Positions 9,674 to 57,480 of a stretch of DNA of 64,000 nt are shown in pieces. Position 1 is the first letter of the stretch. Every line of letters starts with the position of its first letter. A program made the position numbers and the translations under genes. This DNA is from Candidatus Babeliales bacterium (lineage in GTDB: Bacteria > Babelota > Babeliae > Babelales > JACPOV01): contig JBFWNW010000002.1 in assembly GCA_050250855.1 (NCBI GenBank), positions 69,925 to 133,924 of the forward strand. Direction: 5' to 3'. The notes below the pieces were generated by a model. It had not been told where the DNA came from. It was given only the letters and a program-made list of their open reading frames with translations, and did not search any database.

Positions 9674-10519
9674 TTATGGATTTCCATATTTTTTGAATAT
9701 TTTTTCAACAAAAATACGGTTTGATTCTTTAGAAAGCTTTACTGCATGGTTATAATCAGCATTAAGTTTAAACGTTTTTTCTTCATTGCAACGATCAAAA
9801 CCATAGCCTTCCCATAATTTTTCCCAGTTTTCTTTATACTCCAAACAACTGAGAATGGTAGGCAATGCTCCTTCAAGCCAAGCATCATTTTTTCTATAGA
9901 TTTCGCACAGTTCAATAAAATCATCTTTATATACCGCTGGTATATATGCTATATCTGCATATGCATGACAGATGCAATTATCTCCCCAGTTAGCTTTTAA
10001 CATTTCCTTATAGCAATCAGGCGTTTCTTTATAAGCATTCTTTAGTGCTTCATAACCAAATTTTGTTGGCCACCAACAATTAGTAATTGCTCTAATCCCT
10101 TTATTTAAATTAACAGCTTCTCCAATATCATATCTATGCCAATTAACGAATACATGATTAGCGGCCCATATTTTTGATAGATCAAAACGATTATAACGCC
10201 AAACATTCATTAAGCAATCATCGTGACAGAACAAATACCCTTTATAATCAGGAAATCTTTGCATAGCATCACTAAGAGCATAATAACTAAATGCCCCTCG
10301 CTCCTCTTCAATCGCATAAACGTCAGGACACTCACTTGGTCCATAAAAAATTACTTTAGAAAAATAAGGCTCATAGATCTTTTTTAAAAATGAGATTGCT
10401 TCATAATGAGCAAAATTAAAATTTATAATTAAAAGAACATCATCAAACATTTTTCCATAATTAGAAAAAATAATAGTAAAGACAAAAAAATAAACAATTC
10501 TTTTACTAAAAAAAACCAT
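9674..10519 (-). CDS. Hypothetical protein, last gene of the glycan locus; possible glycosyltransferase
   Basis: 281-aa ORF with a hydrophobic N-terminus (IVYFFVFTIIF). I recognised no family motif. Function is guessed from context only. Confidence 0.35.
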   Translation of the reverse strand: MVFFSKRIVYFFVFTIIFSNYGKMFDDVLLIINFNFAHYEAISFLKKIYEPYFSKVIFYGPSECPDVYAIEEERGAFSYYALSDAMQRFPDYKGYLFCHDDCLMNVWRYNRFDLSKIWAANHVFVNWHRYDIGEAVNLNKGIRAITNCWWPTKFGYEALKNAYKETPDCYKEMLKANWGDNCICHAYADIAYIPAVYKDDFIELCEIYRKNDAWLEGALPTILSCLEYKENWEKLWEGYGFDRCNEEKTFKLNADYNHAVKLSKESNRIFVEKIFKKYGNP

Positions 10520-10531
10520 AGGTTTCCCTTT

Positions 10532-11611
10532 CTAGTGTGTTATAGTTTTATAATAGCTATAAGCCTTTTCAAGCATAGCTATTTGCTCCGGTGTAAAAAT
10601 TAACTCTCTTTTGTAATCAGGAATAGTTAATGATAACACGGTATCAATAAAATATTCTGTAGAAAATAGAAATGCCATTTCGCTCTTCAAGTAAGCTTTA
10701 ATATTTTTAATATATTGATCATATTCTTCTTTTTTCATCTTTTTCATAAATTTATATAATTCTCGATTATTTTTAAATTTACGGCGATCAATAAAGCAAC
10801 TTGGCCATACACAATCGGTAATATTTTCTGCACCCCAATAGACTGGTACACAGCCAGAAACTAAACAATCAAAAATTTTTTCTGTAATATAGCCAGGAAC
10901 ATTATTACAATTTTCATAACAAATGCAAAATTTATAATTTTTTAATACTGGGCGTTTATGAGGAACCTTGCCTTTAAATGTCTTAAATTGCGATGCAGGC
11001 CAACCACCTTCACCATAAAAATCAAATTTTTTTCTCCTTTTACTTTTTTTCTCAAAAAAATTAATTACTTCTCTTCGTGCAGAATATAACTGGCCAACTC
11101 CTCCTGACATCTTATAGCTTACTATCATAGTGCACAATTTCTTTTGATCAAAAGAAGGAATATCTTTTTCTATTTCTAATGATGGTTGAGGATAAAAAAA
11201 CTTTAAAGCTTTATCGTTATCAATCATTGCATCAGATAAATATAAAATTTTTTTACAATAAGGCCGATAATCAAAACTATACATTCCTGGCGCAATCAGA
11301 GGCGGTTCAAAAACTCCAAAAATAGATTTTTCTTGCAATGTTTTCGGCAAAAGATCGACATTAGGAGTATTTAAAAAAAAAGCCCCTATACAATTATCAT
11401 CATTATAATCACTAAGCTCTAAACAGCTTGGATGATAACCAAGATTTTTTATGGCTTGTGCAAAATCGTAAAACATCTTCCATCCATTATCGCGACAAGG
11501 GTAATTAGGAATATTTAATATTTCATCAGACAAATTAAAATAAAATACTTTTTCTGTTCCAACTACAGTAAAAAAAGCTAAAAAAACTAATACTCTTATC
11601 TTATTATTCAT
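10532..11611 (-). CDS. GT10-family alpha-1,3/4-fucosyltransferase (copy A1)
   Basis: GT10 signature FCICYENCNNVPGYITEKIFDCLVSGCVPVYWG; compare H. pylori FutA FENS..GYVTEKI...IPIYWG. Signal-like N-terminus. Confidence 0.85.
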   Translation of the reverse strand: MNNKIRVLVFLAFFTVVGTEKVFYFNLSDEILNIPNYPCRDNGWKMFYDFAQAIKNLGYHPSCLELSDYNDDNCIGAFFLNTPNVDLLPKTLQEKSIFGVFEPPLIAPGMYSFDYRPYCKKILYLSDAMIDNDKALKFFYPQPSLEIEKDIPSFDQKKLCTMIVSYKMSGGVGQLYSARREVINFFEKKSKRRKKFDFYGEGGWPASQFKTFKGKVPHKRPVLKNYKFCICYENCNNVPGYITEKIFDCLVSGCVPVYWGAENITDCVWPSCFIDRRKFKNNRELYKFMKKMKKEEYDQYIKNIKAYLKSEMAFLFSTEYFIDTVLSLTIPDYKRELIFTPEQIAMLEKAYSYYKTITH

Positions 11612-11618
11612 ATATTTT

Positions 11619-12467
11619 CTACGCCTTCAAGTAACTATGTTGTAAATGGGGATTAAAAAAAAGAGCCGCGAGCGCAACATTTGATACGCCATGGATAAAA
11701 TGATCACACTTAGAAAGCAACTGTGTTTCAATCAAAACCTGTTCTCCCATTAATGCTCTATTTTTTACTTGTTGGTTCCATATATGTAATCCTGTATCAT
11801 CAAGAGATCGATAGGAGTCATAATAGATCACCTTACCAGGTAATTTCTTTTTTAATTCATCAAGAACTCGTTGATCATCAGTCGCTACCAAAAATTGTGC
11901 TCCCTTATGCTTAGAAGCCTCTTCTATATACTGCTTAAGAGGAATTCGCGGTGCTTCATTATGGTCTGTTCTGCGTACATGAATACCGACCGTCTTTTTA
12001 CCTTGCATATTTTTGTGATAAAAATCATCAATTTTTGCACTAATTTGAGGTTTTATATGTATATATTTTTCTATATATGAGTTAATAAAAGATCTATATT
12101 CATAAGAAAAATTTTGTTCATATCCAATATATCCGCAAGGTATAGCTTGACCATCTGGCGTAACATAATCTTCATGTATTACATCACCAGAATTATACTG
12201 AGCTTCTGAGACGGGATAAAAATAATATTCCCAAATATTATCACTTCCATTATAAGTTCCTGATACTTTATAATAAGCAGGAGCACGGTTCCAATGTACC
12301 ACAAGATCTAGCCCTTTTTCTTCACACCATATAAGATGACTGACTACACCAAATATATTAGAAAAAAGACCTGCCCAGCGACCACCTAAAACATAATGAT
12401 CTTTTGAAAAAGAGAAAAAACTAAAAAATATAATCGACATACAAAGAAAACAAGAATAATTTTTCAT
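11619..12467 (-). CDS. GT23-like (FUT8/NodZ-type) fucosyltransferase (copy B1)
   Basis: GIHVRRTDH ... FLVATDDQRVLDELKKKLP ... GLHIWN ... closely parallels FUT8 IGVHVRRTDK ... VYLATDDPSLLKEAKTKYP ... GLHNRY. Signal-like N-terminus. Confidence 0.75.
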   Translation of the reverse strand: MKNYSCFLCMSIIFFSFFSFSKDHYVLGGRWAGLFSNIFGVVSHLIWCEEKGLDLVVHWNRAPAYYKVSGTYNGSDNIWEYYFYPVSEAQYNSGDVIHEDYVTPDGQAIPCGYIGYEQNFSYEYRSFINSYIEKYIHIKPQISAKIDDFYHKNMQGKKTVGIHVRRTDHNEAPRIPLKQYIEEASKHKGAQFLVATDDQRVLDELKKKLPGKVIYYDSYRSLDDTGLHIWNQQVKNRALMGEQVLIETQLLSKCDHFIHGVSNVALAALFFNPHLQHSYLKA

Positions 12468-12502
12468 TAACTATTTCCTCAACAAAAATCTGTTTTATAG
12501 CT

Positions 12503-13387
12503 CTAAGAAATAACCAAGCCTACCTTAAAATCTTCCGTCATTTTTAAATATATGCTTTTTAATAATGGATTAAAAAACAATGCACCCAAGGAAACATTTG
12601 ATACAGAGTGAATAAAACAATCGCACAAAGAAAGTAGCTTTGATTCTATAAGCACTTGCTCTCCCATAAGAGCTTTATTATCTACTTGTGGGTTCCATAT
12701 ATGCAATCCTTTATTATTTGAAGAACGATACGCATCATAATAAATAACGTTTCCCTTTAGTTTTTGTTTTAAAATATCTAACACTGATTGATCATCGGTC
12801 GCTACTAAAAACTGCACATCTTTAAAAGAATTTGCCACCTGAATATAAGCATTAAGAGGAATGCGTGGCGATTCATAATGATCTGTTCTTCTAACGTGAA
12901 TTCCTATTGTTGCTTTACCTTCCATATTTTTTTTATAAAAATCATTCATTTTTTCAAGAATAGAAGGCTTTATGTGAATATATCTTTGAATATAGGAGTT
13001 AATAAATGATCTATATTCATAAGAAAGATTTTTTTCATATAAATAATATAAACATTCAATAGCTTCTCCATCTGGTGGCGTATAATCTGCGTGCAATTCA
13101 TCACCAAGTTGATAGTGAGCTTCTGAAACAGGATAAAAATAATATTCCCAAATATTATCACTGCCATTATAACCATCACTCATCTTGTAAAAAGAAGGCT
13201 CATCTTTCCAATAAACTACTAAGTCCATTCCCTGTTTTTCACACCAAATGAGATGATTAATGACCCCAAGGATATTTGAAAATAACCCTGTCTGCCGACC
13301 TGTCAAAACATAATAATTATTACTTAAACAAGAAAATGATTGTCCTAAGAAAAAAACTCCTATAATAATTTTTACAAAAAACCGCAT
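12503..13387 (-). CDS. GT23-like (FUT8/NodZ-type) fucosyltransferase (copy B2)
   Basis: Paralogue of 11619..12467: GIHVRRTDHYESPRIPL, FLVATDDQSVLDILKQKL. Confidence 0.75.
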   Translation of the reverse strand: MRFFVKIIIGVFFLGQSFSCLSNNYYVLTGRQTGLFSNILGVINHLIWCEKQGMDLVVYWKDEPSFYKMSDGYNGSDNIWEYYFYPVSEAHYQLGDELHADYTPPDGEAIECLYYLYEKNLSYEYRSFINSYIQRYIHIKPSILEKMNDFYKKNMEGKATIGIHVRRTDHYESPRIPLNAYIQVANSFKDVQFLVATDDQSVLDILKQKLKGNVIYYDAYRSSNNKGLHIWNPQVDNKALMGEQVLIESKLLSLCDCFIHSVSNVSLGALFFNPLLKSIYLKMTEDFKVGLVIS

Positions 13388-13390
13388 AAC

Positions 13391-14461
13391 TTATCCTATT
13401 TTTTTAAACAAAAAAGAACAATAATCCTTTGCCTTTTCAAGGTTAGTTATTTGTTCCGGGTTAAAAATAAGCTCTTTTTTATAATCAGGAACTGTTAATG
13501 ACAAAACTAAATCAATAAAATATTCCATAGAAAATAAAAACGCCATTTCACTCTTTAAATATGCCTTGATATTTTCAATATATTGATCGTATTCCTCTTT
13601 TTTCATATGCTTAATGAAATTGTACAACTCTTGATTATCCTTAAATTTACGCCGATCAATAAAGCAATTTGGCCATACATAATCGGTAATATTTTCTGCA
13701 CCCCAATAAATAGGGACACATCCTGCAACTAAACAATCAAAAATTTTTTCTGTAACATATCCTGGCGCATTGTTGCTATTTTCGTAACATATACAAAACT
13801 TGTAATTTTTGAGCACTGGTCTTTTGTGAGAAACCTTCCCTTTATAGGTTTTAAATGACGCTGGCCATTCAATACCATATACATCAAGCTCTTGGACTCT
13901 TTGAGGATCTGAATCAAAAAAATTAACTACACTAAGACGTTGGGTAAATAATTCTCCAGGCCTTTCTATAAATTTATAGGTTGCAATAAGTGCACATAGT
14001 TTTTTTTCATGAAAATCTGGAATATCCTCTTCAATCTCCAGTGAAGGTTGAGGATAAAAAAATTTAAATCTCGTATTGTTATCAATCTTATTATCCAAGA
14101 GATATAAAGTTCTAAAAGGATAGAAGGTTGTTGTATAATAACCAGGAGCAATAATAGGCGGCTCCCATAATGAGAATAAACATTTTTCAGGAATTAGATT
14201 CGGTGAAATATAATTGGGCAAATTAATAAAAAAAGCACCTGCATAATCTTTTGATCCCAGATAATCAAATTCTTTTACCTCATAACCAAGTTTTTTTGCC
14301 GCCTGAGCTAATTCATAAAAAACTCTATAAGCAGCATCTCTTTGCGGATAAGAAGTATCAGTAAAAGTAACTTCTGGAAGATTTATATAAAAAATCCTTT
14401 GATCAGCTTCACTCAAAAAAACCTGTAATAAAAAAGTAATTCCTAATAAATAGCGCACCAT
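13391..14461 (-). CDS. GT10-family alpha-1,3/4-fucosyltransferase (copy A2)
   Basis: FCICYENSNNAPGYVTEKIFDCLVAGCVPIYWG. The C-terminal half is nearly identical to copy A1. Confidence 0.85.
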   Translation of the reverse strand: MVRYLLGITFLLQVFLSEADQRIFYINLPEVTFTDTSYPQRDAAYRVFYELAQAAKKLGYEVKEFDYLGSKDYAGAFFINLPNYISPNLIPEKCLFSLWEPPIIAPGYYTTTFYPFRTLYLLDNKIDNNTRFKFFYPQPSLEIEEDIPDFHEKKLCALIATYKFIERPGELFTQRLSVVNFFDSDPQRVQELDVYGIEWPASFKTYKGKVSHKRPVLKNYKFCICYENSNNAPGYVTEKIFDCLVAGCVPIYWGAENITDYVWPNCFIDRRKFKDNQELYNFIKHMKKEEYDQYIENIKAYLKSEMAFLFSMEYFIDLVLSLTVPDYKKELIFNPEQITNLEKAKDYCSFLFKKIG

Positions 14462-15933
14462 TATACTATGCCAAAATTATACAGCTTTCTCTTTTGATAT
14501 AGCTGCTGATCATACCTAAAATATTGTGCATTACGCACATATAAAGGATCGTTATGATCAGAACCATCTAAAGGGTAATTATTCTTAATAAGCTGCTCAT
14601 AGAATATTTTTTCTTTACCGAGTGAACGGGCTACTTCAGCCAGTTCATTATCGCAGTAATATGATTTATATTCTGGATAATAAATATATCCAAACCGTTT
14701 ATAATACATTCTGCCTATAATAGGATAAATAACATAGTCTTTAGGATCTCTGCCATCTGAAAAATTAAGGATACCGTCAAAATCAGGAAAATGTTTCAAC
14801 ATTTGACGCACTATAACTACATCATAGTTTTTTACGATAGGTTCAAGATCATCACTTACTACTAAAATAACGTCAAACTTATCAATAAAATCATCGATAT
14901 CTTTATTGTATGCTTCAATTTTTGAACTACTATTGCCAAAGCGATAAGAAAGATTTGGCAAACTATCAAGAATACTTATTACCTTGGCATTATTCATAGT
15001 TGGATCATCTTGATCGCACGTAATTAAAAAATGGTAGGGAATGGTTCCTGATAACATCTCATAGTACTTTTTTAAATATTGGAAAAATTGTACCGGACGA
15101 TAACGCGTTGGAATTTTTATAAGTAGACGAACTAACTGCTCTCTTGACTGCTTGCAAGCATGAAATGCTATAGTATCTATATCTTTTTTATATGCACTAT
15201 AGGGCCTTGGAGGTAAACAATCAACATAAGTACCTTCTTCAATACGGCCCACATCATAGCGCCAATTAATTTTATCTATTCTCGTGCGTGGTGAAACTAC
15301 ATCAGTTTTGCCCAATCGTATACAGCGACTCTCATAACCATCCCACGCAAGTACCGTTTTATATAACATTTTTTGATCAGTGGTCCATCCAATTGCAGTA
15401 TCATGCCATTCTTTAATCTTTTGAGGGATATCCTCTTTTGTGAAAATCTTAAAAATTTCTGCAAAAATTTTACCTTTACCTGCAACATAGCACATAGGAA
15501 TTTCTTTGAATTGTCGTTCAAACTCTTCGCTATCTCGATAAACAACAAAAACATCATCAGCTAAATCTTTAATACGCTCGGTAAAATAATCTCGAGAAAG
15601 AGGTAATAAGTCTATATCAGAAACTATGCAACAATCATTGGGAAATAACAAGGGCAAAAATAAGCGAATACATTGAGCATATAATGACGTTGGTATGCCT
15701 GGAATAGGCTCAAAGCGAATAATGTCACCTAATGATTCATCTATTTCTACACTTTTATCTGCAATTAAAGCTAACGTTGGCCTTATACCAACTACTTCTT
15801 TCCACATCTTGGCAACCAGCGGCCAGTATTCTATATAATTGGGATTTGCATCAGTAGACAAAATAACACGATCAAGCGTTAAAGCTTCTGCTTTAAAAAT
15901 ACATAAAAAAAGTACTACGTATATTCTTCTCAT
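14461..15933 (-). CDS. Hypothetical two-domain protein, possible glycosyltransferase
   Basis: 490-aa ORF with signal-like N-terminus MRRIYVVLFLCIFKAEA and 1-nt overlap with the downstream gene. No family motif recognised with confidence. Confidence 0.4.
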   Translation of the reverse strand: MRRIYVVLFLCIFKAEALTLDRVILSTDANPNYIEYWPLVAKMWKEVVGIRPTLALIADKSVEIDESLGDIIRFEPIPGIPTSLYAQCIRLFLPLLFPNDCCIVSDIDLLPLSRDYFTERIKDLADDVFVVYRDSEEFERQFKEIPMCYVAGKGKIFAEIFKIFTKEDIPQKIKEWHDTAIGWTTDQKMLYKTVLAWDGYESRCIRLGKTDVVSPRTRIDKINWRYDVGRIEEGTYVDCLPPRPYSAYKKDIDTIAFHACKQSREQLVRLLIKIPTRYRPVQFFQYLKKYYEMLSGTIPYHFLITCDQDDPTMNNAKVISILDSLPNLSYRFGNSSSKIEAYNKDIDDFIDKFDVILVVSDDLEPIVKNYDVVIVRQMLKHFPDFDGILNFSDGRDPKDYVIYPIIGRMYYKRFGYIYYPEYKSYYCDNELAEVARSLGKEKIFYEQLIKNNYPLDGSDHNDPLYVRNAQYFRYDQQLYQKRKLYNFGIV

Positions 15934-15943
15934 AGCTATCTCT

Positions 15944-17305
15944 TTATTCAGTACATGAAATTAAACAAATATCTTCTTTGTCTTTGGATAAATCATAAGA
16001 TTGTATAGTTGAAAGTGATAATACAGTATTTCTTTTTACTATCATGCCACATGAATCTGCAGGAGACATAAATTTTACTTGTGAAATAGCTAAACCATCC
16101 CATAGATATGAAGCATTTTGCTGAGAAGAAAAATCTTTTTTGGATAGTATACAGAAATTTGATTTTGTATCATGCATAGCTTCTGCACAAATTTCTCTAT
16201 TTTTTAATGTTTCTAAAGCTTTAACGTCTGTAATAACACAATAATAATCATAATTAACATCTTTTAACCAAAAATCAGGTGATGCATCCTGCGATGGGTT
16301 AATAACAAACGTATAATGAGAGTAAAGAGAAGCTAATTGTTCATAATCATTTTTATGAGATAAGTCTCCACAGCAAATAACGTTTAGATTTTCATTTTTA
16401 TATAAACCTTTAAATGCGCTTAATGTCTCTGCAAGTGTATTTGGATCATTAGCATAGATCAAAAAAGGAATAGATTTTTTTTGATACGATTCTCGATAAG
16501 GTCTTTGTTCAAGGGGTTTGTATGCCGACCGGCTGCTAATAACCTTTCTTAAAAATTGTTGCTTTTCCCAGTTAGTTGCACCATCTGCAATTGGATTATC
16601 TTCATTGTAGCGATATAAAATGTTTGGGTTAAATTTGTAATGATTAATTGCCATCTCTATAATTGGATACACCCAAGAAACGTCCTGTGCCATAGAGAAA
16701 AACATACCTTCATGTAGTAAATCTTTAAGAGCAACTTCTCTAAAAAGCCATGCATACATGCAACGAGGAGGACTAAAATACCAATTTTGACGAATAAGAT
16801 TACGCTGCTTTACCATAGGAGGAATATCACCAGACCATGGTGCATAACCGTTTCTTGTTCCCCAAAAATTACCGTAGGTAAACCAAATAGATTCATCACT
16901 AAACTGTTCATTGATTGATGATAAAACATCTTTTGTAGTAAAGGTATCATCGCCATCCAAAATTACTGCAATTTCATGAGGTTTGCAGAATTTATAAAAG
17001 GCATACACAATATTTCTGAGCGCAAGACCACGAATTTCATTTTTAATAAGAGTAACGCGATGATGTATATCATACTGATCAATAAAAGCCTTTGCATTTG
17101 CATAAGTATTATCAGGAGAACAATCATCTATATAAACAACGCGAAATTTTTCATAATCCTGCATAAGAACTGATGCTAAATTTTCATTGCATACATCTTG
17201 ATTTTTATAAGAAGGAATAATAACAACAATATCATGCTGATATGCTGCTGCTATAGTATATACTCCCCCTACAAAAATTAATCCAAAAAATAGTTTTAAA
17301 TTCAT
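15944..17305 (-). CDS. GT2-family glycosyltransferase with an extra C-terminal domain
   Basis: VVIIPSYKNQD...VVYIDDCSPDNT and DGDD (DXD) motifs. Preferred start MNLKLFF at 17305 forms an ATGA overlap with the upstream stop. An alternative start lies at 17335. Confidence 0.8.
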   Translation of the reverse strand: MNLKLFFGLIFVGGVYTIAAAYQHDIVVIIPSYKNQDVCNENLASVLMQDYEKFRVVYIDDCSPDNTYANAKAFIDQYDIHHRVTLIKNEIRGLALRNIVYAFYKFCKPHEIAVILDGDDTFTTKDVLSSINEQFSDESIWFTYGNFWGTRNGYAPWSGDIPPMVKQRNLIRQNWYFSPPRCMYAWLFREVALKDLLHEGMFFSMAQDVSWVYPIIEMAINHYKFNPNILYRYNEDNPIADGATNWEKQQFLRKVISSRSAYKPLEQRPYRESYQKKSIPFLIYANDPNTLAETLSAFKGLYKNENLNVICCGDLSHKNDYEQLASLYSHYTFVINPSQDASPDFWLKDVNYDYYCVITDVKALETLKNREICAEAMHDTKSNFCILSKKDFSSQQNASYLWDGLAISQVKFMSPADSCGMIVKRNTVLSLSTIQSYDLSKDKEDICLISCTE

Positions 17306-18243
17306 ACACACTTCCTTATTTGCTTTAAGTACCATTGAAAATTTTTAATATCATTTCTTGAACTATAAATATGGGTATTTTCATTAACAAAATCACCTTG
17401 CCAGGTAATATAAAAAGGAATTGAAACCTGATTATAATCCAAAAGCATAGGAACTTTCTGCGTATAGTCTTGTTTATGAATGCAAAGATCTTTTAAATAG
17501 GCTAAAATTCCCAACAACGCTTGTTCATAGCGAGCACAACCAAACCCTTCAGGAGCTGTCCCATCATCAATAAAATTTCTTAAATCTTTGCTCATGTTAT
17601 ATAAGGGAGTAATAAAAAGATCTTGTGCTTTTTGCGCTACACCAATAACACCAGCCATAACTGCCTCTTGTGAAAGTATCCATTGATACTCGGGAGCATC
17701 AAGATTAAATTTATTTCTTACATAACGCGTTGTCTGCCATGCAATGGGATGTCTAAATTTACCATTATCACGCTCATTACCAATAGTAGCTAAAAAATAT
17801 CCTTTGTGCTGTATATATTCAAATAAATCATCAAGAGGACGCAATACCGTTGAGCCTGCATCTATCCATAGAACATAGGGAAATCTTTCTAAAGCCTGTT
17901 TTATAACAACAGGTTTCCATGCAAACCATCCAGGAACCATTCTTCCTGCCTTATTAATTACTACCTGCCTGAGTAAGTCAGGATGCGTTAATTCAACATT
18001 ATAAACTGCTATATTTTGAATAGTTTTAAGAAAAGAAATTTGTTGTTCTTCAAGGCCTAAATCAAAAACAGCAATTTCGTTAATATTGTCATAATTTGTA
18101 GCATGTAATGATCCAATTAAATTTAAAAGCTTAGAAAAATATTTTGCATCACATGCAGTACAATAATACTGAGGAATAGCTTGTAGAAAAGCCATTCCTC
18201 CTAATAAAGCTAACCATACATAAAGAGTCTTTCTTTTTATCAT
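17302..18243 (-). CDS. Nucleotide-diphospho-sugar-transferase-like protein
   Basis: Signal-like N-terminus. FAWKPVVIKQALERFPYVLWIDAGS resembles GT-A families with a W-K-P...D-x-D/S core. Family assignment is uncertain. Confidence 0.45.
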   Translation of the reverse strand: MIKRKTLYVWLALLGGMAFLQAIPQYYCTACDAKYFSKLLNLIGSLHATNYDNINEIAVFDLGLEEQQISFLKTIQNIAVYNVELTHPDLLRQVVINKAGRMVPGWFAWKPVVIKQALERFPYVLWIDAGSTVLRPLDDLFEYIQHKGYFLATIGNERDNGKFRHPIAWQTTRYVRNKFNLDAPEYQWILSQEAVMAGVIGVAQKAQDLFITPLYNMSKDLRNFIDDGTAPEGFGCARYEQALLGILAYLKDLCIHKQDYTQKVPMLLDYNQVSIPFYITWQGDFVNENTHIYSSRNDIKNFQWYLKQIRKCV

Positions 18244-18249
18244 TACTCT

Positions 18250-18840
18250 TTACTCAAAAAATGTACGAATATCTATAGTATCACTGACAATCGTTGTCTG
18301 AATTGCATAACGCAAATAAGTATAACGATATTTGAAAGTTGCAAGAACTGGTTCATACCCATATGCAGGTTCTTCTGTATCATGTACAACAAAAATATCT
18401 GCATTATGGCGCAAACGCTCAATATCAACTCTTCGTCTATCACCAGGACGATGATCAACAAAAACCACTGACCAATAGCGATCTGTTCCTACAGCATCCC
18501 ATAATTCTGGCTTTGGATTCTTTGCCCAATCATCTTCAAAAACAGGAATATAGCTAAAATGATGCCAATCTCGTGCCAAATCTATAAATAAAGAAAGCCA
18601 TCTTTTATCAGTATCTGTTGTAAGAAGAAACCGTTTTGTTACTGAACAAACAGCATGCAAAAGTGGCGTACTATAATCCCCAGATCCAAGTTCTAAAATA
18701 GGCCCTTTAGTATTTGCCACGACCGTCATAAGAGGAGCCATGTGAGTCCCATAATTGCCATCACCAAGACGTCTATTCGCTTCTATAAACTGGCCATTTA
18801 AACTCAATAAAATTATGAATAAAAATAATTTTTTTTGCAT
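18250..18840 (-). CDS. Possible SAM-dependent methyltransferase-like protein
   Basis: ILELGSGDYSTP resembles Rossmann motif I, and VVFVDH / VVHDTE strands follow. Start MQKKLFLFIILL at 18840 avoids overlap with the upstream gene. Confidence 0.35.
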   Translation of the reverse strand: MQKKLFLFIILLSLNGQFIEANRRLGDGNYGTHMAPLMTVVANTKGPILELGSGDYSTPLLHAVCSVTKRFLLTTDTDKRWLSLFIDLARDWHHFSYIPVFEDDWAKNPKPELWDAVGTDRYWSVVFVDHRPGDRRRVDIERLRHNADIFVVHDTEEPAYGYEPVLATFKYRYTYLRYAIQTTIVSDTIDIRTFFE

Positions 18841-18853
18841 ACTATTCCCTCTT

Positions 18854-19774
18854 TTAAAAAGACCAATCAATATCCCAAATATCTAAATCTTTAAAGTAAC
18901 CTTTTCCATACTGTTCAAACCATGCCAATACCTGTTTTTTCCTCCATAAAATTGGTTTATCCCATACAGAAAAATCAAGAAATTCATAACCTTTAAACCA
19001 ATATACTGGAGATGGTTGCGTTCTTAATCCTCGCTCATCTTTTGAAGGGAAATAACGCACATTAATTTCCTGGCAAGATTTTTCTGGTTGCCTGATACGC
19101 TCAAGACAGCGATACCACGCTTGTTTTTCTAATAAGTTTTGCCAATTAACAAACTGAAAATGCAAAAGGCCATATTCATAACCCTGTAAACGGAATCTTT
19201 TTCCTTGCACGGGAAAACTACGATTATGCAAAAAGTATGAAGGAAAATTTGAAACACCATCATCGCAAAAAATAACAGGTTTATAATCATTGGTCCATTT
19301 TGAGTCATCAAAACGATAGCGATCTATTGTTCTCCAGAGTTGAATCCAACAAACCTCCATACTTTCTCCTGGCTGCAAAGAAAGAATAAGTTTGCGTAAA
19401 AAATTATTATCTGAACAGTTTGCAGTAAACATTTCATCCGCATCAATTAAAACAAAATGAGTACCACCAAGTGCTCTGCCAGCATCTAATAATTTCTGCT
19501 TGTTATCACTTTCTTTGCCAACTTGCCAGCCAGATTGTTCATTGCGCAAAATGACAAATTCTTTGCCAAGCTTTTTACAACATGATTCAACCAGAATTTT
19601 AGTGCTATCTTCAGAATTATCATCAAGCGTAACAAATGCATCAACATAAAAAGACAATGCTTGTAAACATTGCTCAATACATTGCTCTTCATTTCTTACT
19701 TGCATAAGACTTACTATTTTAGGTGAAGCAGTTAAAGATAAAAAAGTCCCTAACAATAATAATAATTTAAACAT
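18854..19774 (-). CDS. GT2-like glycosyltransferase
   Basis: VSLMQVRNEE...VTLDDNSEDST and LIDADEMF (DXD) motifs. Start MFKLLLLLG at 19774 is preceded by AAGGAG. Confidence 0.6.
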   Translation of the reverse strand: MFKLLLLLGTFLSLTASPKIVSLMQVRNEEQCIEQCLQALSFYVDAFVTLDDNSEDSTKILVESCCKKLGKEFVILRNEQSGWQVGKESDNKQKLLDAGRALGGTHFVLIDADEMFTANCSDNNFLRKLILSLQPGESMEVCWIQLWRTIDRYRFDDSKWTNDYKPVIFCDDGVSNFPSYFLHNRSFPVQGKRFRLQGYEYGLLHFQFVNWQNLLEKQAWYRCLERIRQPEKSCQEINVRYFPSKDERGLRTQPSPVYWFKGYEFLDFSVWDKPILWRKKQVLAWFEQYGKGYFKDLDIWDIDWSF

Positions 19775-19787
19775 ATTCAGCACTCCT

Positions 19788-20636
19788 TTACTGAACAAAT
19801 GCTTCTTTTTTTAACCAGCTTCCTGCCCAATGGTGCACCGCATATGATTCAGGTTTTTGCCATTCTGAGGCAGGGGTTCCTCGTTGTTCATAACCACATG
19901 GGTAAAAGTAACTAGCGGGAAAAGCTACGATACGAAATTCTTGCATCATAGAGGGAACATATTTTAAAAAAAGTTTAGTAAAAAACAAAGGACCCGTTCT
20001 TAGTATAATCTGAATCTCATGAGATGAATTACGCAACTCTTCAATACATTTTTGCAATAATGGATGATGAGGAATAGACGCTATTAAAGCATTGTTAAGC
20101 TGGACCATATTGGTATCCAAAGGTTGAATACCGGTGTAAAAATCATAAATACATAAAGAATTCATTGATTTTAAACATTCAAAATCGGTATCAATGTAAA
20201 TACCCCCAAATTGCTCTAAAATTTCATAACGCCAAATATCAGACTTTTCACCATAATTCTTTGAAGCATCAAATAGATCTTTATTACGCCACGCAAATGA
20301 TGCTACATCTGCATCTGTCCATAATTTATATTCCCAGCCAGGATTATGCTTCAACCAGCTTTCTTGATAAGCGCGGTATTTTTCAGGAAAAGGACTACCA
20401 AGCCAAATTTGATGTATTATTTTAGGGATACGAACAGACGTCGGCACAATTCTTGCTGGTGAAAATAAGTTATATAAACGCTCAAAAAAGTTTTTAAGCA
20501 TCATATTATTATTCTTTTCAAGAATATGTTTATATGAATCAGCTTGCATTGATGTATTAAAATCTACCCATATAAAATTTTCCTGTGCACAAACTAAAGA
20601 ACTAAAAAGAAACGTTATGCTTAATAGTTTTTTCAT
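19788..20636 (-). CDS. GT32-type glycosyltransferase with a DXD sugar-binding region
   Basis: IPKIIHQIWLG...NPGWEYKLWTD...SDIWRYEILEQFGGIYIDTDFECL is a classic Gly_transf_sug/OCH1-type signature. Signal peptide MKKLLSITFLFSSLVCA. Confidence 0.8.
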   Translation of the reverse strand: MKKLLSITFLFSSLVCAQENFIWVDFNTSMQADSYKHILEKNNNMMLKNFFERLYNLFSPARIVPTSVRIPKIIHQIWLGSPFPEKYRAYQESWLKHNPGWEYKLWTDADVASFAWRNKDLFDASKNYGEKSDIWRYEILEQFGGIYIDTDFECLKSMNSLCIYDFYTGIQPLDTNMVQLNNALIASIPHHPLLQKCIEELRNSSHEIQIILRTGPLFFTKLFLKYVPSMMQEFRIVAFPASYFYPCGYEQRGTPASEWQKPESYAVHHWAGSWLKKEAFVQ

Positions 20637-20638
20637 AA

Positions 20639-21670
20639 TTATACCCTTGCTTGTTTATAAGATTTTTCTGGTACAACCTTGTGCGCTAAATACCAAAAAT
20701 ATGCTTCCTTTAAACCATTTTTCAATGAAGTTTTTGCTGTCCAACCAAGCTGTGAAATTTTATCAACATTTAATACTTTTCTTGGCGTGCCATCTAAAGT
20801 ATTGATATTAAAAAGGATTTCTCCTGCATACCCAACGATCTCTTTAATTAAAGAAGCTAGTTCGGCAATTGTTATATCTTTACCGGTCCCAATATTAATA
20901 TGACCCGATTCTTCATAACTATTCATTAAAAATAAGCATGCTTGCGCTAAATCATCGACGTATAAAAATTCTCGCAACGCTTTACCCGTTCCCCATAAAG
21001 AAACTGACGGTTTATTTTCTTCTTTTGCTGCATGAATTTTTGCAATAAGTGCAGGAATAACGTGCGATGATTCAAAGTCAAAATTATCATGAGGACCATA
21101 AAGATTTGTTGGCATACAAGAAATAAATTTTGTACCATATTGCCTGTTATAGCTTTTGCATAAAAGTATGCCGGCAATTTTTGCAAGCGCATACGGCTCA
21201 TTTGTTTTTTCAAGTTCATCGGTCATTAAATACTCTTCTTGTATTGGTTGAGGACAATTACGAGGATAAATGCAAGAAGAACCTAAAAATAAGAGCTTTT
21301 TAACGCCATTGGTATACGATGCATGAATAATATTTGCTTCAATCATAAGATTGTCATAAATAAATGAGGCTGGAAAATCATTATTTGCTTTAATGCCGCC
21401 AACTTTTGCAGCAGCCAAAAACACATATTCCGGTTTTTCTTGGTTGAAAAAATCATGTACCGCTGCTTGGTTGCGCAAATCAAGTTCTGCAAAACTACGC
21501 GTTATAAGGTTAGTATATCCTTCAGCTTGCAACGCTCGCATTAAAGCAGAGCCAACCAACCCCTGACCTGCTATATAAATTTTTGCCTGCTTGTCCATAT
21601 GTGCTTCACTAACACCAGTAAAAAGATTAAAAATCAAGCCTATACTCATTATCTTTGTTACGTAGTTCAT
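20639..21670 (-). CDS. fcl: GDP-L-fucose synthase (GDP-4-keto-6-deoxymannose 3,5-epimerase/4-reductase)
   Basis: Collinear with E. coli Fcl from [11 protein letters not shown] (ATG at 21598) to the C-terminus: [33 protein letters not shown]. An upstream in-frame ATG at 21670 has a strong AGGAGA SD and adds the hydrophobic 24-aa segment [24 protein letters not shown]. Confidence 0.9.
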
Positions 21671-22859
21671 GAGATTCTCCTGATAATTTTTGAGCTGCAA
21701 TGTAGATATTTGAGCCGGTTGCCTCACTTTTTAATTCCCATGCAATTTGTTCTAAATCTGCATCCATCATTAGACAAACTAAATCTTTAAAGGTTGTTTT
21801 TGGCTCCCAACCAAGAAGTTTTTTTGCTTTGCTAGGATCACCCAGTAAAATTTCAACTTCAGTCGGTCTGAAATAACGAGGATCAACCGCTATCAACAGC
21901 TCACCAGTTTTTTTATTGTATCCTTTTTCCTCAGCACCTATACCGCGCCATTCTACCGTAATACCAACACGTTCAAATGCTAATTCAACAAACTCTCTTA
22001 CGGTATGCGTTTGTCCGGTTGCAACAACCCAATCTTCAGGCTTTTCATACTGTAAAATAAGCCACATTGCTTCTACATATTCTTTGGCATAGCCCCAATC
22101 TCGTTTTGCATCAAGATTACCTAAATAAATAGGATCTTTTTTACCTAAAGAAATTGCGGCTACCGCACGCGTAATTTTTCTGGTTACAAAGGTTTCGCCA
22201 CGTAAAGGAGATTCATGATTAAATAAAATACCATTTGCAGCAAACATGCCGTAGGCTTCTCGATAGTTTACCGTTATCCAATAGGCATAAAGTTTTGCAA
22301 CACCATAGGGAGAACGTGGATAAAAAGGGGTCGTTTCTTTTTGAGGAATTTCTTGTACGTTGCCATACATTTCTGAAGTTGATGCTTGGTAAAATTTCGT
22401 TGTTTTATCAAATCCGGTTACACGCAATGCTTCTAATAAACGCAAGGTACCTATGCCATCAGCATTTGCTGTATATTCTGGCACTTCAAAAGAAACTTTT
22501 ACATGAGATTGTGCTGCAAGATTATAAATTTCATCAGGCTTAATTTCTTGTATCAAACGAATAAGATTGGTAGAATCGGTCATATCACCAAAGTGTAAAA
22601 AGAAATTTCCTTTCTTTTTATTATGAGGATCACGGTATAAAGGATCTATGCGATGCGTATTAAACATTGATGAACGACGTTTAATGCCATGAACTTCATA
22701 CCCTTTACCCAGTAAAAATTCAGCCAAGTAGGCCCCATCTTGACCAGTTATACCGGTAATTAAGGCAACTTTTTTCTTCATACTCTGCTCTCCTGCAAAA
22801 AAAGTACTGAATCCTAAGCAAGCTACTGCAACAAAAATTTTTTTATAAGAGTGCTTCAT
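21627..22859 (-). CDS. gmd: GDP-mannose 4,6-dehydratase
   Basis: Collinear with E. coli Gmd from [16 protein letters not shown] (ATG at 22781, AGGAGA upstream). The longer ORF from 22859 adds [26 protein letters not shown]. Confidence 0.92.
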
Positions 22860-22874
22860 ATCCTATTTCCTTTT

Positions 22875-23903
22875 TTATGTATAATGATGGCTATTTTTTT
22901 CCCGTAATTGATGCAAAATATGTTTTACTTTATCTGTCTGATCTCGCTTCGCTATTAAAAGAACATCATCTGTTTCTACAACACATAGATCTTCAACGCC
23001 TATAAGTGCTACGAGCTTTTTTGGCACCTGAACAATATTATTAGCTGCGTGCAATTCAATAACTTCTGTTTGCTGTTGGCTATGCTTTTTGTGCAAAGAA
23101 AGAAATATTTCTAAGTTGCCAACATCTGACCATGTAAAAGAGCAGGGCTGTACATACACGGCATTACTTTTTTCTAATACCGCATAATCAATAGAAATAT
23201 TTTCGGCATCTTTGTAATCTGCTTTATGTTCAAAAAAATCACATACCACCTTATATAGCTGTTGGGCATGACGATTGTATTCTTCTATAAAAACAGAACT
23301 TTTGGCACAAAAAATACCTATATTCCATAACATGGTATCCATGGTACTATATACATCCGCCAATTGCGCTGAAGGTTTTTCATGAAAACGAGAAACTTTT
23401 ACAACATCATTTTTTTGCGCTGCCATTTCTATGTAGCCATAGTTTGTTGCGGGAAAATCAGGACGAATTCCTAACAATGTTATGGCATCATGAGCTTGCG
23501 AAAATTCTAACGCATTATTTAAATGTTTGGCAAATTGGTCATCTTCTACAATAAAAGCATCAGCAGGTAAAAAAGCTATAATTGCTGAAGGGTCTTTTTG
23601 TTGAATATAAAGCGTAGCCAAAAGTAATGCTGGCGCTGTATTGCGGCCAATTGGTTCAGACAAAATGCCGCCTATAGAATCTCCCAAAAGACTTTTAATA
23701 GAATCAACCTGCTGCTCAGTTGTCATAATAAAAATATTATGTTTTTCAACAATTAAAGAAGCACGCATAACAGTACGCTCAAGCAAAGAATTTTGATCAT
23801 CAAGAGAGAGCAGCTGCTTTGGCTTTTTCTCTCTACTCAAAGGCCATAAACGCTCACCTTTGCCTCCAGCTAAAATAACAATATAGCGTGATGTTATATC
23901 CAT
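22875..23903 (-). CDS. manC: Mannose-1-phosphate guanylyltransferase (nucleotidyltransferase domain only)
   Basis: VILAGGKGERLWPLSREKKPKQLL N-terminal NTP-transferase signature. At 342 aa there is no C-terminal isomerase/cupin domain. Confidence 0.8.
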   Translation of the reverse strand: MDITSRYIVILAGGKGERLWPLSREKKPKQLLSLDDQNSLLERTVMRASLIVEKHNIFIMTTEQQVDSIKSLLGDSIGGILSEPIGRNTAPALLLATLYIQQKDPSAIIAFLPADAFIVEDDQFAKHLNNALEFSQAHDAITLLGIRPDFPATNYGYIEMAAQKNDVVKVSRFHEKPSAQLADVYSTMDTMLWNIGIFCAKSSVFIEEYNRHAQQLYKVVCDFFEHKADYKDAENISIDYAVLEKSNAVYVQPCSFTWSDVGNLEIFLSLHKKHSQQQTEVIELHAANNIVQVPKKLVALIGVEDLCVVETDDVLLIAKRDQTDKVKHILHQLREKNSHHYT

Positions 23904-23909
23904 AACTAT

Positions 23910-24623
23910 TTATTTTTTTCTTCGTTCAAAAAACAAACGACAAAATGTTTTAGCTGCTTCTTTCATAATTGCTACTGAAAGCTTTGAATCGCCATGAATT
24001 CTATTACGTGCATGAATCGGAATTTCTGTTATACGCAAACCATCCTCTTTAAAGCGATACAGTGATTCAATGCAGAAAGAAAATCCTTTTGAACTTACTT
24101 TTTTATAGACATGAGGCTTTAATTTTTGTACAGAATATAAACGGTAAGCACCGGTACAATCGTACGGCATACCAAGGCCTCGTTTAATTAAATTTCGCCA
24201 AAAGTAAGTAAATGGTAAACGAATTCTTCCCCAACCGCTCATGCCACCGCCATGAATATAGCGTGAACCAATAACGACATCATGAACATCTCTTTTTTCA
24301 AAAAGAGCAGGAATATAACGCGGATCGTGCGTAAGATCTGCATCCATCGTAATTAAAAATTTATAATTATGTTTTTGCGCATATTCAAATGCCTGCACGT
24401 GAGCCGTTCCTAAACCAAGCTTTGCAGGGCGATGCATAACATGCACAGAAGGATCTTTTTTACTTAAATCATCAAGAACTTTTCCGGTGCCATCTGGAGA
24501 ATTATCATCACAAAAAAGAATATCAACATCTTCTTTGTGCTTCTTTATTTCTTCATACAAAATTAAAACATTGTCACGTTCATTATAGGTGGGAACAAAA
24601 ACTAAAACTTCATTTTTTTGCAT
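23910..24623 (-). CDS. Polyprenyl-phosphate sugar synthase, Dpm1/Ppm1-like GT2
   Basis: VFVPTYNERDN...DILFCDDNSPDGTG...HRPAKLGLGTA...ITMDADLTHDP is the canonical dolichol/polyprenol-phosphate mannose synthase pattern. Confidence 0.8.
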   Translation of the reverse strand: MQKNEVLVFVPTYNERDNVLILYEEIKKHKEDVDILFCDDNSPDGTGKVLDDLSKKDPSVHVMHRPAKLGLGTAHVQAFEYAQKHNYKFLITMDADLTHDPRYIPALFEKRDVHDVVIGSRYIHGGGMSGWGRIRLPFTYFWRNLIKRGLGMPYDCTGAYRLYSVQKLKPHVYKKVSSKGFSFCIESLYRFKEDGLRITEIPIHARNRIHGDSKLSVAIMKEAAKTFCRLFFERRKK

Positions 24624-24632
24624 AGTATAAAC

Positions 24633-25985
24633 CTAGTGAATCAATTGGTACGTAATAATAGTATTTTCTTTCTTTGCACAACGATATGCAACAACCATAC
24701 CAAAAGCAGAAAAAAGGATAAAGAAGTATTCAAACATCATCCGATAGCGCGCACATCCGTCATGTCCTGTTATAAAGGAAAAATAAAAAATTGAAATAAT
24801 GACAAAGCTAACTATAAAATAATATTTTTTATGCCATAGAGCATAAAGGCCGATCATGATAAAAAATAGTTGCAATACCATCCAGAGTAATTGTAAAAAT
24901 GCAATAATATGTATTAAACGCGATGAAGTGCCATCAACTACATAATGGTAAAAACGATTATATAAAGAGCCTGACTTTGAAAAAAATGATGTTTCCGTAC
25001 CTTTTAACGATGGATTTACTAAAAATTTAAGTTGATTCGTATACAAAGCACCTACCGTCTTTATCATGTTATGCAACCAAATACGTACAACTAATACTGG
25101 TTTTTCATAAAAATAAGAATGCATCAATGCTTTTGGTTTATTCCAACGCGTATGATCATTATGATGTTTACCATCCATTAACGTACCGACCTGAACTAAT
25201 CCTTCTGCCCATGAGATACCTTGGTCATGTGCTATAACTTTTGCCAAAAAATAAAAATAAATATTTTCATGCATTAAAGGGGCAATTGTCATAGAACCAA
25301 ATTGATACTTATTGTGTAGCATATAACCAGCAACAGGAATATAAAAACAAAACAAGCACAGTAAAATGGCATTCAATACTTTTTGTCTCTGTAAATAAGC
25401 ATGTAGCCCGACAAAAAAGATTACTATGAAAATATAAAAAAGCGCTACCGGTTTTACCGCAACTGAACAACCATACAATAAGCCTGCTAGGGCTAAAGAA
25501 GATAAGCTAGACGTTTTAAAATACGTACATAAACGCTCAAGAGAAGCTATCAAGAAAAATGCTAAAAGCACTTCTGTGAGCATAAATTGACTGTATATTA
25601 AAAAACCAAGATTAAAAGATCCTAACAAAACAGTTACTTGTGCAACATGTTCATCAAAAAGCATGTATGCTATGCGATAGAGCAACAATAACGCTAAAAG
25701 GCTTAGCAAGATTTGTGCAATAATGACCCATGTGTGATGAAAACCAAATAACTTATAAATACTACCTAGAAAAAATGGGTACCCTAATGTTTGAACGGGA
25801 ATAATGGATCCTCGTTGAGGATCCATTAATTGATTATCTGTTGCAAAATAGTTGCCTATTGCCACATATCCTGATGAATCAAGATCACAATGAGCTTCAT
25901 AGGCAGGATTTATCCTATACAAACTGTAGGATAATAAACAAAAAATAACTATCGAACAGAGTAAAACTATTTTTGTACTATTCAT
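24633..25985 (-). CDS. GT-C fold membrane glycosyltransferase (PMT/ArnT-like)
   Basis: 450 aa with many predicted TM helices. CDLDSSGY acidic motif in the first extracytoplasmic loop. 4-nt overlap with the upstream gene. Confidence 0.65.
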   Translation of the reverse strand: MNSTKIVLLCSIVIFCLLSYSLYRINPAYEAHCDLDSSGYVAIGNYFATDNQLMDPQRGSIIPVQTLGYPFFLGSIYKLFGFHHTWVIIAQILLSLLALLLLYRIAYMLFDEHVAQVTVLLGSFNLGFLIYSQFMLTEVLLAFFLIASLERLCTYFKTSSLSSLALAGLLYGCSVAVKPVALFYIFIVIFFVGLHAYLQRQKVLNAILLCLFCFYIPVAGYMLHNKYQFGSMTIAPLMHENIYFYFLAKVIAHDQGISWAEGLVQVGTLMDGKHHNDHTRWNKPKALMHSYFYEKPVLVVRIWLHNMIKTVGALYTNQLKFLVNPSLKGTETSFFSKSGSLYNRFYHYVVDGTSSRLIHIIAFLQLLWMVLQLFFIMIGLYALWHKKYYFIVSFVIISIFYFSFITGHDGCARYRMMFEYFFILFSAFGMVVAYRCAKKENTIITYQLIH

Positions 25986-29485: not shown

Positions 29486-29500
29486 AGGAAAAGTTCCTCT

Positions 29501-51377: not shown

Positions 51378-51486
51378 TAATAAGTAGGACAAATCAAGGG
51401 TCTATTCTTGCAATCAAAAATAGCCCTTGACAAAAAATTAATATGAAGGGTATTGTGTGAAAGTAATGTCAAAAAAAGGAATATTA

Positions 51487-52638: not shown

Positions 52639-52650
52639 ATGTAGAAAAAA

Positions 52651-57478: not shown

Positions 57479-57480
57479 TT

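Follow-up and report, generated by a model that had tools for sequence, protein, structure and literature searches.

Signal-bearing fucose-donor enzymes and glycosyltransferases in the Babeliales suggest a glycan pathway beyond the inner membrane

A 64,000-nucleotide stretch of DNA from a Candidatus Babeliales bacterium (contig JBFWNW010000002.1, positions 69,925 to 133,924; hereafter the window) holds a glycan locus in which the enzymes that form GDP-L-fucose, and the glycosyltransferases encoded downstream of them, begin with segments resembling Sec signal peptides. Eleven consecutive accessory proteins carry Sec-type N-termini, and GDP-mannose 4,6-dehydratase (Gmd) and GDP-L-fucose synthase (Fcl) carry signal-like extensions in front of their catalytic folds. 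The signals are specific to certain protein families and are conserved among relatives, where they are an obligatory part of several orthologues; on sequence grounds the pattern extends to the order Babeliales. This suggests that a whole order of protist parasites moves its fucose-donor enzymes, and many transferases with them, through the inner membrane. The most likely place of work of these enzymes is outside the cytoplasm, be it the periplasm and cell surface or the host cytosol. The thirteen genes concerned are listed below, the first eleven each encoding a Sec-type N-terminus.

9674–10519, minus strand: STELLO-like glycosyltransferase (Pfam STELLO, 34 bits at residues 23–61, directly after the signal called by the heuristic described below).
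10532–11611, minus strand: GT10 fucosyltransferase copy b (Pfam Glyco_transf_10, 58 bits).
11619–12467, minus strand: NodZ/FUT8-like (GT23-like) transferase copy b (Pfam NodZ, 29.0 bits against a cut-off of 28.3; FUT8_N_cat, 28.3 against 27.6).
12503–13387, minus strand: NodZ/FUT8-like transferase copy a (below the Pfam cut-off; 67% identical to copy b).
13391–14461, minus strand: GT10 fucosyltransferase copy a (Pfam Glyco_transf_10, 58 bits).
14461–15933, minus strand: two-domain GT-A-like protein with no Pfam family (ESM Atlas features and structure, alignments from residue 18).
15944–17305, minus strand: GT2 glycosyltransferase (Pfam Glycos_transf_2, 58 bits; start at 17305, in an ATGA overlap with the upstream gene).
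17302–18243, minus strand: GT-A-like protein of DUF1647/GT8-like fold (ESM Atlas structure, TM 0.67–0.69, aligned from about residue 17–22).
18250–18840, minus strand: class I S-adenosylmethionine (SAM)-methyltransferase-like protein (ESM Atlas features, 0.95, only; start at 18840).
18854–19774, minus strand: GT2-like protein (Glyco_tranf_2_4, below cut-off; start at 19774).
19788–20636, minus strand: GT32-type DXD glycosyltransferase (Pfam Gly_transf_sug, 62 bits; TcdA_TcdB, 43 bits).
20639–21670, minus strand: Fcl, preceded by 24 signal-like residues (471 bits with NCBIfam GDPFucSynFcl, the match beginning at residue 28).
21627–22859, minus strand: Gmd, preceded by 26 signal-like residues (611 bits with TIGR01472, the match beginning at residue 30; translation could plausibly start internally, at 22781, as well).

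Signals were called with a crude heuristic that asks for a positive start, a 10-residue uncharged core whose hydropathy averages 2.2 or more and a cleavage motif of small residues, and that replaced a laxer first version. The relaxed heuristic had called ManC signal-bearing in two relatives (G022 and G029; G numbers denote genomes, G000 being that of the window), and these miscalls were corrected by eye. A 19-residue Kyte-Doolittle window was discarded as a discriminator of signals and anchors; it gave no separation, the Rossmann strand of WecC scoring as high as some signals.

All thirteen N-termini carry a net charge of +1 to +3 before the hydrophobic core and are mostly neutral or acidic after it, a distribution that predicts an N-in, C-out topology with the enzyme facing outward. 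By the heuristic, the uncharged core measures 10–16 residues in eight of the eleven transferase-type proteins and 16 in Gmd; cores of 10–16 residues are too short to span a bilayer. Every N-terminus has a candidate cleavage site with small residues at −3 and −1, for example A-x-A, S-x-A or S-x-S, and between the core and the start of the catalytic fold lie a few to about 30 residues, with no stem region. No twin-arginine motif (S/T-R-R-x-F-L-K) occurs in the thirteen N-termini and TatC was not found in the genome, which is 95% complete; a signal for twin-arginine translocation (Tat) is not supported. What is found is the positive n-region and mostly short h-region of a Sec signal (about 7–15 residues in the type), and not the span of about 17–22 residues with a stem that marks a Golgi-type signal anchor. 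The two GT10 copies are 60% identical and the NodZ/FUT8-like copies 67%, and in both pairs the signal regions have diverged to few identities and are still hydrophobic, as is typical of signal peptides. Overall, the segments have the look of cleavable Sec signals of short length, not of Golgi-type anchors.

If the segments were instead uncleaved N-terminal anchors, they would tether cytoplasm-facing catalytic domains in a membrane-bound glycan-assembly complex that draws on the cell's own nucleotide sugars. Such an arrangement would keep Leloir enzymes with their donors, as textbook biochemistry has it, and would suit both the relatives in which plain Gmd and Fcl stand beside a GT10 enzyme with a hydrophobic N-terminus and the three of the eleven proteins whose uncharged runs reach 20–24 residues; a WecA-like gene and a Wzx-like fusion in the genome would make flip-out of the product possible. 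The charge distribution of the thirteen N-termini nevertheless predicts the outward orientation, the shorter cores cannot span the bilayer, and many of the N-termini have a cleavage motif of the A-x-A type. Sequences of this type were also called signal peptides by Phobius in 44% of the proteins of Chromulinavorax, another member of the Dependentiae (PMC6561590). Anchoring on the cytoplasmic side is on balance quite improbable.

The sequence-only reading of the window had offered two explanations for these N-termini, namely export, possibly through a secretin system, or the retention of membrane anchors from eukaryote-like ancestors. In the second case, Golgi-type anchors would have been acquired together with the glycosyltransferase genes from eukaryotes or giant viruses. 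It is true that the GT10, FUT8/NodZ-like, GT32 and STELLO families are best known from eukaryotic Golgi enzymes and that the ESM Atlas neighbours of the two GT-A-like proteins include viral clusters. Against this stand the short cores (eight of eleven) without a stem, the presence of such segments on Gmd, Fcl and ManC of bacterial type, whose counterparts in eukaryotes are cytosolic, and the bacterial origin of the nearest solved GT10 structure. Furthermore, signals diverge fast between recent paralogues, which indicates that they are maintained locally and were not inherited as a block. The N-termini do not resemble Golgi anchors, and the eukaryotic forms of Gmd and Fcl work in the cytosol; a eukaryotic inheritance is therefore not needed to account for the N-termini, and we consider it extremely unlikely. 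The export explanation found partial support: the Sec anatomy, the conservation of its character across paralogues and orthologues, and the Gmd, Fcl and ManC proteins of relatives that have no other possible start all agree with it, whereas the secretin link and the final compartment are matters that we infer.

The eleven N-termini lie on the minus strand between 9674 and 20636, where that reading had placed them, as confirmed by the listing and translation of open reading frames (ORFs). Three of them begin at internal ATGs (17305, 18840 and 19774) of longer ORFs that run upstream from TTG or ATG. These internal ATGs are the better starts because of their stronger Shine-Dalgarno (SD) pairing, with duplex energies of −6.9, −6.3 and −8.2 kcal/mol as opposed to +0.6, −2.0 and −2.2 for the longer alternatives, and because of their operon spacing, either 13 nt past the preceding stop codon or overlapping it as ATGA. 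Across the genome, 57% of called starts reach −4 kcal/mol compared with 11% of internal in-frame ATGs, and only 2% of the latter reach −6.

The two extensions had likewise been read correctly. The gmd ORF is indeed open for 26 codons upstream of the canonical start; its upstream ATG (22859) lies 15 nt past the manC stop, a spacing typical of a tightly packed operon, and has an SD energy of −5.6, while the internal ATG (22781) would leave 93 nt after that stop and reaches −7.4. The fcl ATG at 21670, preceded at 5 nt by AGGAGA, reaches −7.4, and the canonical ATG at 21598 is weak (−2.8). The NCBIfam models begin at residue 30 of the long form of Gmd and residue 28 of that of Fcl, which places both extensions outside the enzyme folds. 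Beyond the conserved domain the gmd frame stays open for about 35 more residues, and its last 44 nt (21627–21670, minus strand) overlap the extended fcl start, so that the fcl signal is partly encoded inside gmd. As had also been noted, ManC, the Dpm1-like protein, the oxidoreductase, WecC and WecB start directly in their domains according to Pfam and NCBIfam matches.

A signal-like extension of Gmd, hydrophobic and with a positive start, is present in nine of the 20 Babeliales genomes with a full Gmd, including that of the window. In two of these (G039 and G023) no other ATG, GTG or TTG lies between the signal start and the Rossmann motif, in three others (G004, G021 and G033) a good SD is found at one start alone, which stands ahead of the signal, and in G001 a GTG start with an SD energy of −8.5 gives a textbook signal. 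Fcl bears a signal in four genomes (G000, G004, G013 and G021), in all of which Gmd is signal-bearing as well, and has no alternative start in G021. ManC bears one in a single genome (G033), again with no other usable start. The Gmd, Fcl and ManC signals of several relatives must therefore be translated, as no other usable start codon exists there, and the long forms of these proteins stand letter for letter in public annotations. Annotators are accordingly warned against trimming such starts to a “canonical” methionine.

These orthologues bear directly on the possibility that gmd and fcl are translated only from 22781 and 21598, the upstream stretch being an untranslated spacer that merely resembles a signal. 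In its favour, the internal gmd ATG has an SD energy (−7.4) of a kind rarely seen at internal in-frame ATGs, and an internal methionine is kept in the Gmd of G000, G001, G002 and G013. Conversely, orthologues that lack an internal start show the extension to be coding, the extended fcl start has by far the stronger SD of the two, the upstream gmd ATG has the tighter spacing to manC, and the hydrophobic character is kept across 0.3–0.7 substitutions per site. A start-site artefact in the window's genome is very unlikely. Exported and cytoplasmic isoforms of Gmd may coexist, given that the internal start with its good SD is kept in the window's genome and its closest relative; in the window's genome, the internal start would supply the second, cytoplasmic isoform.

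In the Gmd tree, a clade with support of 99/98 unites the signal-bearing members from the window's family and sets them apart from the plain Gmd of a sister genus. Signal-bearing forms also occur in four other families, and three to four changes of state are needed. The hydrophobic extension persists over the distances given above, and the catalytic motifs are intact. Out of 1.84 billion proteins, the best 150 Gmd cluster representatives include 98 that begin directly in the fold and a single one whose N-terminus is signal-like; signal-bearing Gmd looks rare outside the Babeliales lineage, a count that is indicative only, since clustering at 50% identity hides members. One relative (G033, TM6 GW2011_GWF2_36_131; locus L030, 9524–15249) encodes two tandem signal-bearing Gmd paralogues and a signal-bearing ManC, with no Fcl in the region, and may make a different 6-deoxyhexose outside the cytoplasm.

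The transferases show the same trait. GT10 enzymes bear signals almost everywhere in the relatives, and the GT32-type enzyme does so in G002, G005 and G025; its gene follows fcl, and it is signal-bearing, even where Gmd and Fcl are plain. Close NodZ/FUT8-like homologues from other samples are signal-bearing too; copy a has only seven relatives among 5.8 billion proteins, and a signal is present in three of the five more distant ones fetched (P0013, P0015 and P0016). Altogether, 13 of 19 accessory transferases in relatives have the same kind of N-terminus by the heuristic, and 14 of 19 by eye. The idea that GT10 is signal-bearing only where Gmd is so was rejected, as GT10 signals also occur alongside plain Gmd and Fcl (G005, G006 and G040); co-localised donor synthesis and transfer is therefore not a rule. 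In a GT10 alignment scan, the only relatives in named genome contigs were those of an unclassified metagenome-assembled genome (MAG), MAS3.bin28 (L025), and of a Chlamydiae MAG (L026). The former lies in a similar cluster whose GT2_4-like, STELLO-like and GT-A-like genes also encode hydrophobic N-termini, and the N-terminus of the latter is hydrophobic and uncharged.

The background of such N-termini is high, with 35% of 1078 ORFs of the genome signal- or membrane-like by the heuristic. The run of eleven signal-bearing proteins is the longest in the genome and is reached in 0.6% of 20,000 shuffles (P ~0.006). The signals are family-specific: they are missing from the classical GT2 and GT4 enzymes of other loci, from two other short-chain dehydrogenase/reductase enzymes, and from ManC, WecB, WecC, the oxidoreductase and the Dpm1-like protein. 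WecB, WecC, the oxidoreductase and Dpm1 are without a signal in six to nine relatives each as well, and never signal-bearing there.

As for the identity of the enzymes, the families assigned by the sequence-only reading stood for GT10, GT2 and GT32 by Pfam and, narrowly, for one of the two GT23-like proteins. Its GT2-like label (18854–19774) stays below the cut-off, and its methyltransferase-like label is matched by ESM Atlas features only; two proteins that it had left unlabelled (14461–15933 and 17302–18243) are GT-A-like by ESM Atlas features and structure only. Matches over the Pfam cut-off were obtained for both GT10 copies (58 bits each against 24, Glyco_transf_10 C-terminal domain), GT2, GT32 (Gly_transf_sug) and STELLO. 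Solved GT10 relatives in the PDB are 2nzw, 5zoi and FUT9, the nearest to copy a being the Helicobacter pylori alpha1,3-fucosyltransferase (FucT), and a sequence comparison with the PDB gave no match for the NodZ/FUT8-like pair. Among solved structures, the GT32-type enzyme comes closest in sequence to Legionella SetA, Yersinia YeGT, toxin glycosyltransferase domains and yeast Och1 (E 2e-9 to 5e-6 for SetA and YeGT), the SetA match (E 2e-9) covering only about 50 residues. Gmd scores 611 bits against an equivalog cut-off of 415 (TIGR01472) and retains the GxxGxxG, S/T-E and Y-x3-K motifs, and Fcl scores 471 against 500 (NF047922) in a full-length match from residue 28.

The remainder of the locus and the features around it are signal-less enzymes, membrane proteins and a possible exit route.

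22875–30685, minus strand: signal-less conserved core of ManC, Dpm1-like GT2, PMT_2 GT-C membrane protein, fused oxidoreductase, WecC and WecB (domain matches; syntenic in relatives, the soluble enzymes without a signal).
30817–32298, plus strand: second PMT-like GT-C membrane protein flanking the locus (Pfam PMT, 22 bits; syntenic in relatives).
51466–60033, plus strand: secretin cluster with a type II secretion system C (T2SS-C)-like gene, two secretins and PilM, a possible outer-membrane exit route whose link to the locus is putative only.

ManC of the locus lacks an isomerase domain. The Dpm1-like GT2 (98 bits) and the GT-C protein (PMT_2, 42 bits; PMT, 32 bits) are over their cut-offs, and the two may form a protein O-mannosylation system of polyprenol-phosphate-mannose synthase and PMT; the PMT_2 family also covers ArnT-like enzymes. 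A HIT-family nucleotide hydrolase/transferase adjoins wecB together with the second PMT-like protein (30817–32813, plus strand); a HIT-like ORF is found near the glycan locus in several relatives, and at least two of these (G001 and G030) have it immediately next to a similarly large membrane ORF. A family 1 glycoside hydrolase whose N-terminus is hydrophobic is encoded just upstream, on the other side of the locus and across an RNase G-like gene (5848–7284, plus strand). A second glycan locus is situated upstream of the window (contig C2, 36800–56600, of the same genome). In it, classical GT2 and GT4 enzymes without signals, a gene resembling asparagine synthase and a Wzx-like/GT4 fusion of 903 residues are interspersed with STELLO-like and NodZ/FUT8-like paralogues that do carry signals. 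The two secretins of the window (52651–55296 and 57481–60033, plus strand), with the T2SS-C-like protein and PilM, may form one system or a pilus channel plus a secretion channel. Tandem, near-identical seven-blade WD40 beta-propeller proteins of eukaryotic type (33681–35117 and 35447–36886, plus strand), each with a Sec-like N-terminus, are candidate secreted host-interaction proteins.

The genome itself is a Dependentiae (TM6, order Babeliales) MAG from landfill of 1.22 Mb in 11 contigs, within the range of its order-level relatives (all 0.7–1.8 Mb). Sequencing runs containing its DNA come from landfill and sludge, with no RNA run among those listed. Its lineage is one of protist parasites with ATP/ADP translocases. 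TLC-type nucleotide translocases and signal peptidase I are encoded; LpxC, Wzy_C and Bac_transf were, like TatC, not found in the 95% complete genome. A WecA-like gene and a weak Wzx-like fusion are present, and in view of them the absence of a classical flip-out route is not claimed. This gene content matches the published biology of the Dependentiae (PMC6561590). Chromulinavorax destructans replicates in the host cytoplasm, is devoid of lipopolysaccharide (LPS) genes and has a Sec system and a PulD-like channel. Phobius predicts signal peptides for 44% of its coding sequences, eukaryote-like repeat proteins included, and both the secretion of signal-bearing ankyrin proteins and the shedding of vesicles have been reported (PMC6561590).

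We propose that the Sec-type signal peptides are translated and cleaved and that the eleven accessory enzymes (two GT10, two NodZ/FUT8-like, GT2-type, GT32-type, STELLO-like, GT-A-like and methyltransferase-like proteins) would leave the cytoplasm, Gmd and Fcl being exported together with the transferases. In the periplasm or at the cell surface they would put a fucose-rich glycan on envelope proteins or glycans of the LPS-less parasite itself. Priming would fall to the signal-less part of the locus, with ManC and the Dpm1-like synthase in the cytoplasm and the PMT-like GT-C transferases in the membrane. Export by Sec, TatC not having been found, implies that Gmd must fold and bind NADP after crossing the membrane. 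Because Fcl needs NADPH, the transferases nucleotide sugars and the methyltransferase SAM, the destination must hold a metabolite pool like that of a cytosol, and replication inside a protist with import of host ATP makes the host the most plausible source. GDP-mannose, NADP(H), SAM and other nucleotide sugars would accordingly be supplied by the host cytosol, reaching the enzymes through the outer membrane into the periplasm or by release of the enzymes into the host cytosol. Of these two destinations the periplasm and cell surface are favoured because the locus is in conserved synteny with a polyprenol-phosphate-sugar synthase and GT-C transferases that act on the bacterium's own envelope, because eleven sequential enzymes work best in a confined space, and because a cell without LPS needs another surface coat. 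Export by cleavable Sec signals to work on the bacterium's own envelope is the reading we tentatively prefer, at somewhat short of an even chance.

The other destination would turn the enzymes into effectors. After passage to the periplasm by Sec, a secretin-based system or outer-membrane vesicles would release them into the host cytosol, where they would glycosylate host targets or coat the bacterium from outside. The host cytosol holds all the cofactors, GDP-mannose, NADPH and UDP-sugars, the window encodes a T2SS-C-like protein, two secretins and PilM, and the nearby WD40 proteins of eukaryotic type are also Sec-signalled and make most sense in the host. Among the nearest solved relatives of the GT32-type enzyme are host-targeting glycosyltransferases (SetA, YeGT and toxin domains), though Och1 matches too. 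Precedents exist in the signal-bearing ankyrin proteins and vesicles that Chromulinavorax releases (PMC6561590) and in the glycogen-pathway enzymes that Chlamydia exports to its vacuole (PMC4829429; PMC9251005). However, eleven sequential transferases and a methyltransferase would be diluted in the host cytosol, synteny ties the locus to GT-C transferases and a polyprenol-phosphate-sugar synthase acting on the bacterium's own envelope, the enzymes have no known secretion motif or partner, and the secretins could belong to type IV pili. Release into the host is thus unlikely, though well worth keeping in view.

Several points weigh against work of the enzymes in the periplasm or at the surface. 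To our knowledge, GDP-mannose, NADPH and SAM are not known in the periplasm, and no nucleotide-sugar exporter or suitable porin was identified. The signal calls rest on a crude heuristic that miscalls some Rossmann N-termini, and the three proteins with uncharged runs of 20–24 residues could carry uncleaved anchors. The internal gmd start has a stronger SD than the signal-bearing one, GT10 is signal-bearing even where Gmd and Fcl are plain, and cysteine counts do not differ between signal-bearing and plain Gmd, so that Gmd has no export signature of this kind.

In the textbook scheme, nucleotide-sugar synthesis and the Leloir transferases are cytoplasmic and lipid-linked products are flipped outward. 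The classical GDP-fucose pathway, as in Gmd and Fcl of Escherichia coli colanic acid synthesis and in H. pylori FucT, is recognisable in the locus, where Gmd passes and Fcl nearly reaches the equivalog cut-off and the C-terminal domain of GT10 is related to FucT; the classical enzymes, however, are cytoplasmic and without a signal. The arrangement also recalls O-mannosylation and fucosylation in the endoplasmic reticulum (ER) and Golgi, with a polyprenol-phosphate-sugar synthase and GT-C proteins at the membrane (Dpm1 and PMT) and, beyond it, GT10, GT23-like and GT32-type enzymes, comparable to type II Golgi transferases such as FUT and Och1. The Golgi enzymes are held by an uncleaved anchor some 20 residues long with a stem and are served by nucleotide-sugar transporters, and Gmd and Fcl of eukaryotes are cytosolic; in the present locus, by contrast, the signals are short and no nucleotide-sugar transporter was identified. 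It is possible, rather than probable, that members of the Babeliales operate a Golgi-like Leloir pathway outside the cytoplasmic membrane, in the periplasm or at the surface, comprising Gmd, Fcl (ManC in one lineage), some ten transferases and a SAM-dependent methyltransferase, and supplied across the outer membrane with GDP-mannose, NADPH, SAM and UDP-sugars of the host. If the periplasmic reading is true, bacteria would have here their first nucleotide-sugar pathway outside the cytoplasm, a glycosylation compartment of a new kind and a novel form of metabolic parasitism.

More broadly, if the enzymes are exported, either the periplasm or the host cytosol would be a glycosylation compartment fed by host metabolites. 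Parasitism for energy would then reach as far as nucleotide sugars and cofactors, and the pathway could explain how LPS-less Dependentiae build a surface coat recognised by protists. The idea is testable in the cultured members Babela, Vermiphilus and Chromulinavorax.

Among bacterial glycosyltransferases that act abroad, SetA/Lgt of Legionella, YeGT of Yersinia and the clostridial toxins TcdA/B resemble the GT32-type enzyme in being GT-A DXD enzymes that work outside their producer on host nucleotide sugars. They leave by type IV or type III secretion or by self-translocation, each acts alone on host proteins, and their genes are not part of a glycan operon that includes donor synthesis. No description of the pattern reported here was found in the literature on Dependentiae/TM6 with glycosyltransferase, fucose or signal peptide. 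The sequence-only reading had called it unusual for bacteria, which is apt in general and less so for this phylum, in which a large signal-bearing proteome is already a known trait. Chromulinavorax shares phylum and lifestyle with the window's organism, and the proportion of signal-bearing proteins is comparable (44% there, about 35% by the heuristic here). Glycosyltransferases, fucose and nucleotide-sugar enzymes are unmentioned in its published signal-bearing set, whereas the signals of the present genome stand on enzymes with supposedly cytoplasmic substrates (PMC6561590). The closest functional precedent is Chlamydia trachomatis, in which type III secretion signals on glycogen enzymes and phosphoglucomutase allow vacuolar glycogen to be made from host UDP-glucose (PMC4829429; PMC9251005). 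There too an intracellular bacterium signals housekeeping sugar enzymes out of the cell, placing a nucleotide-sugar pathway outside its cytoplasm; the differences lie in the route, product and place, namely type III secretion, glycogen and a vacuole as opposed to Sec-type signals, GDP-fucose and many transferases. The pattern in the Babeliales appears to be undescribed, and a variant of a known theme, the export of housekeeping sugar enzymes by intracellular bacteria.

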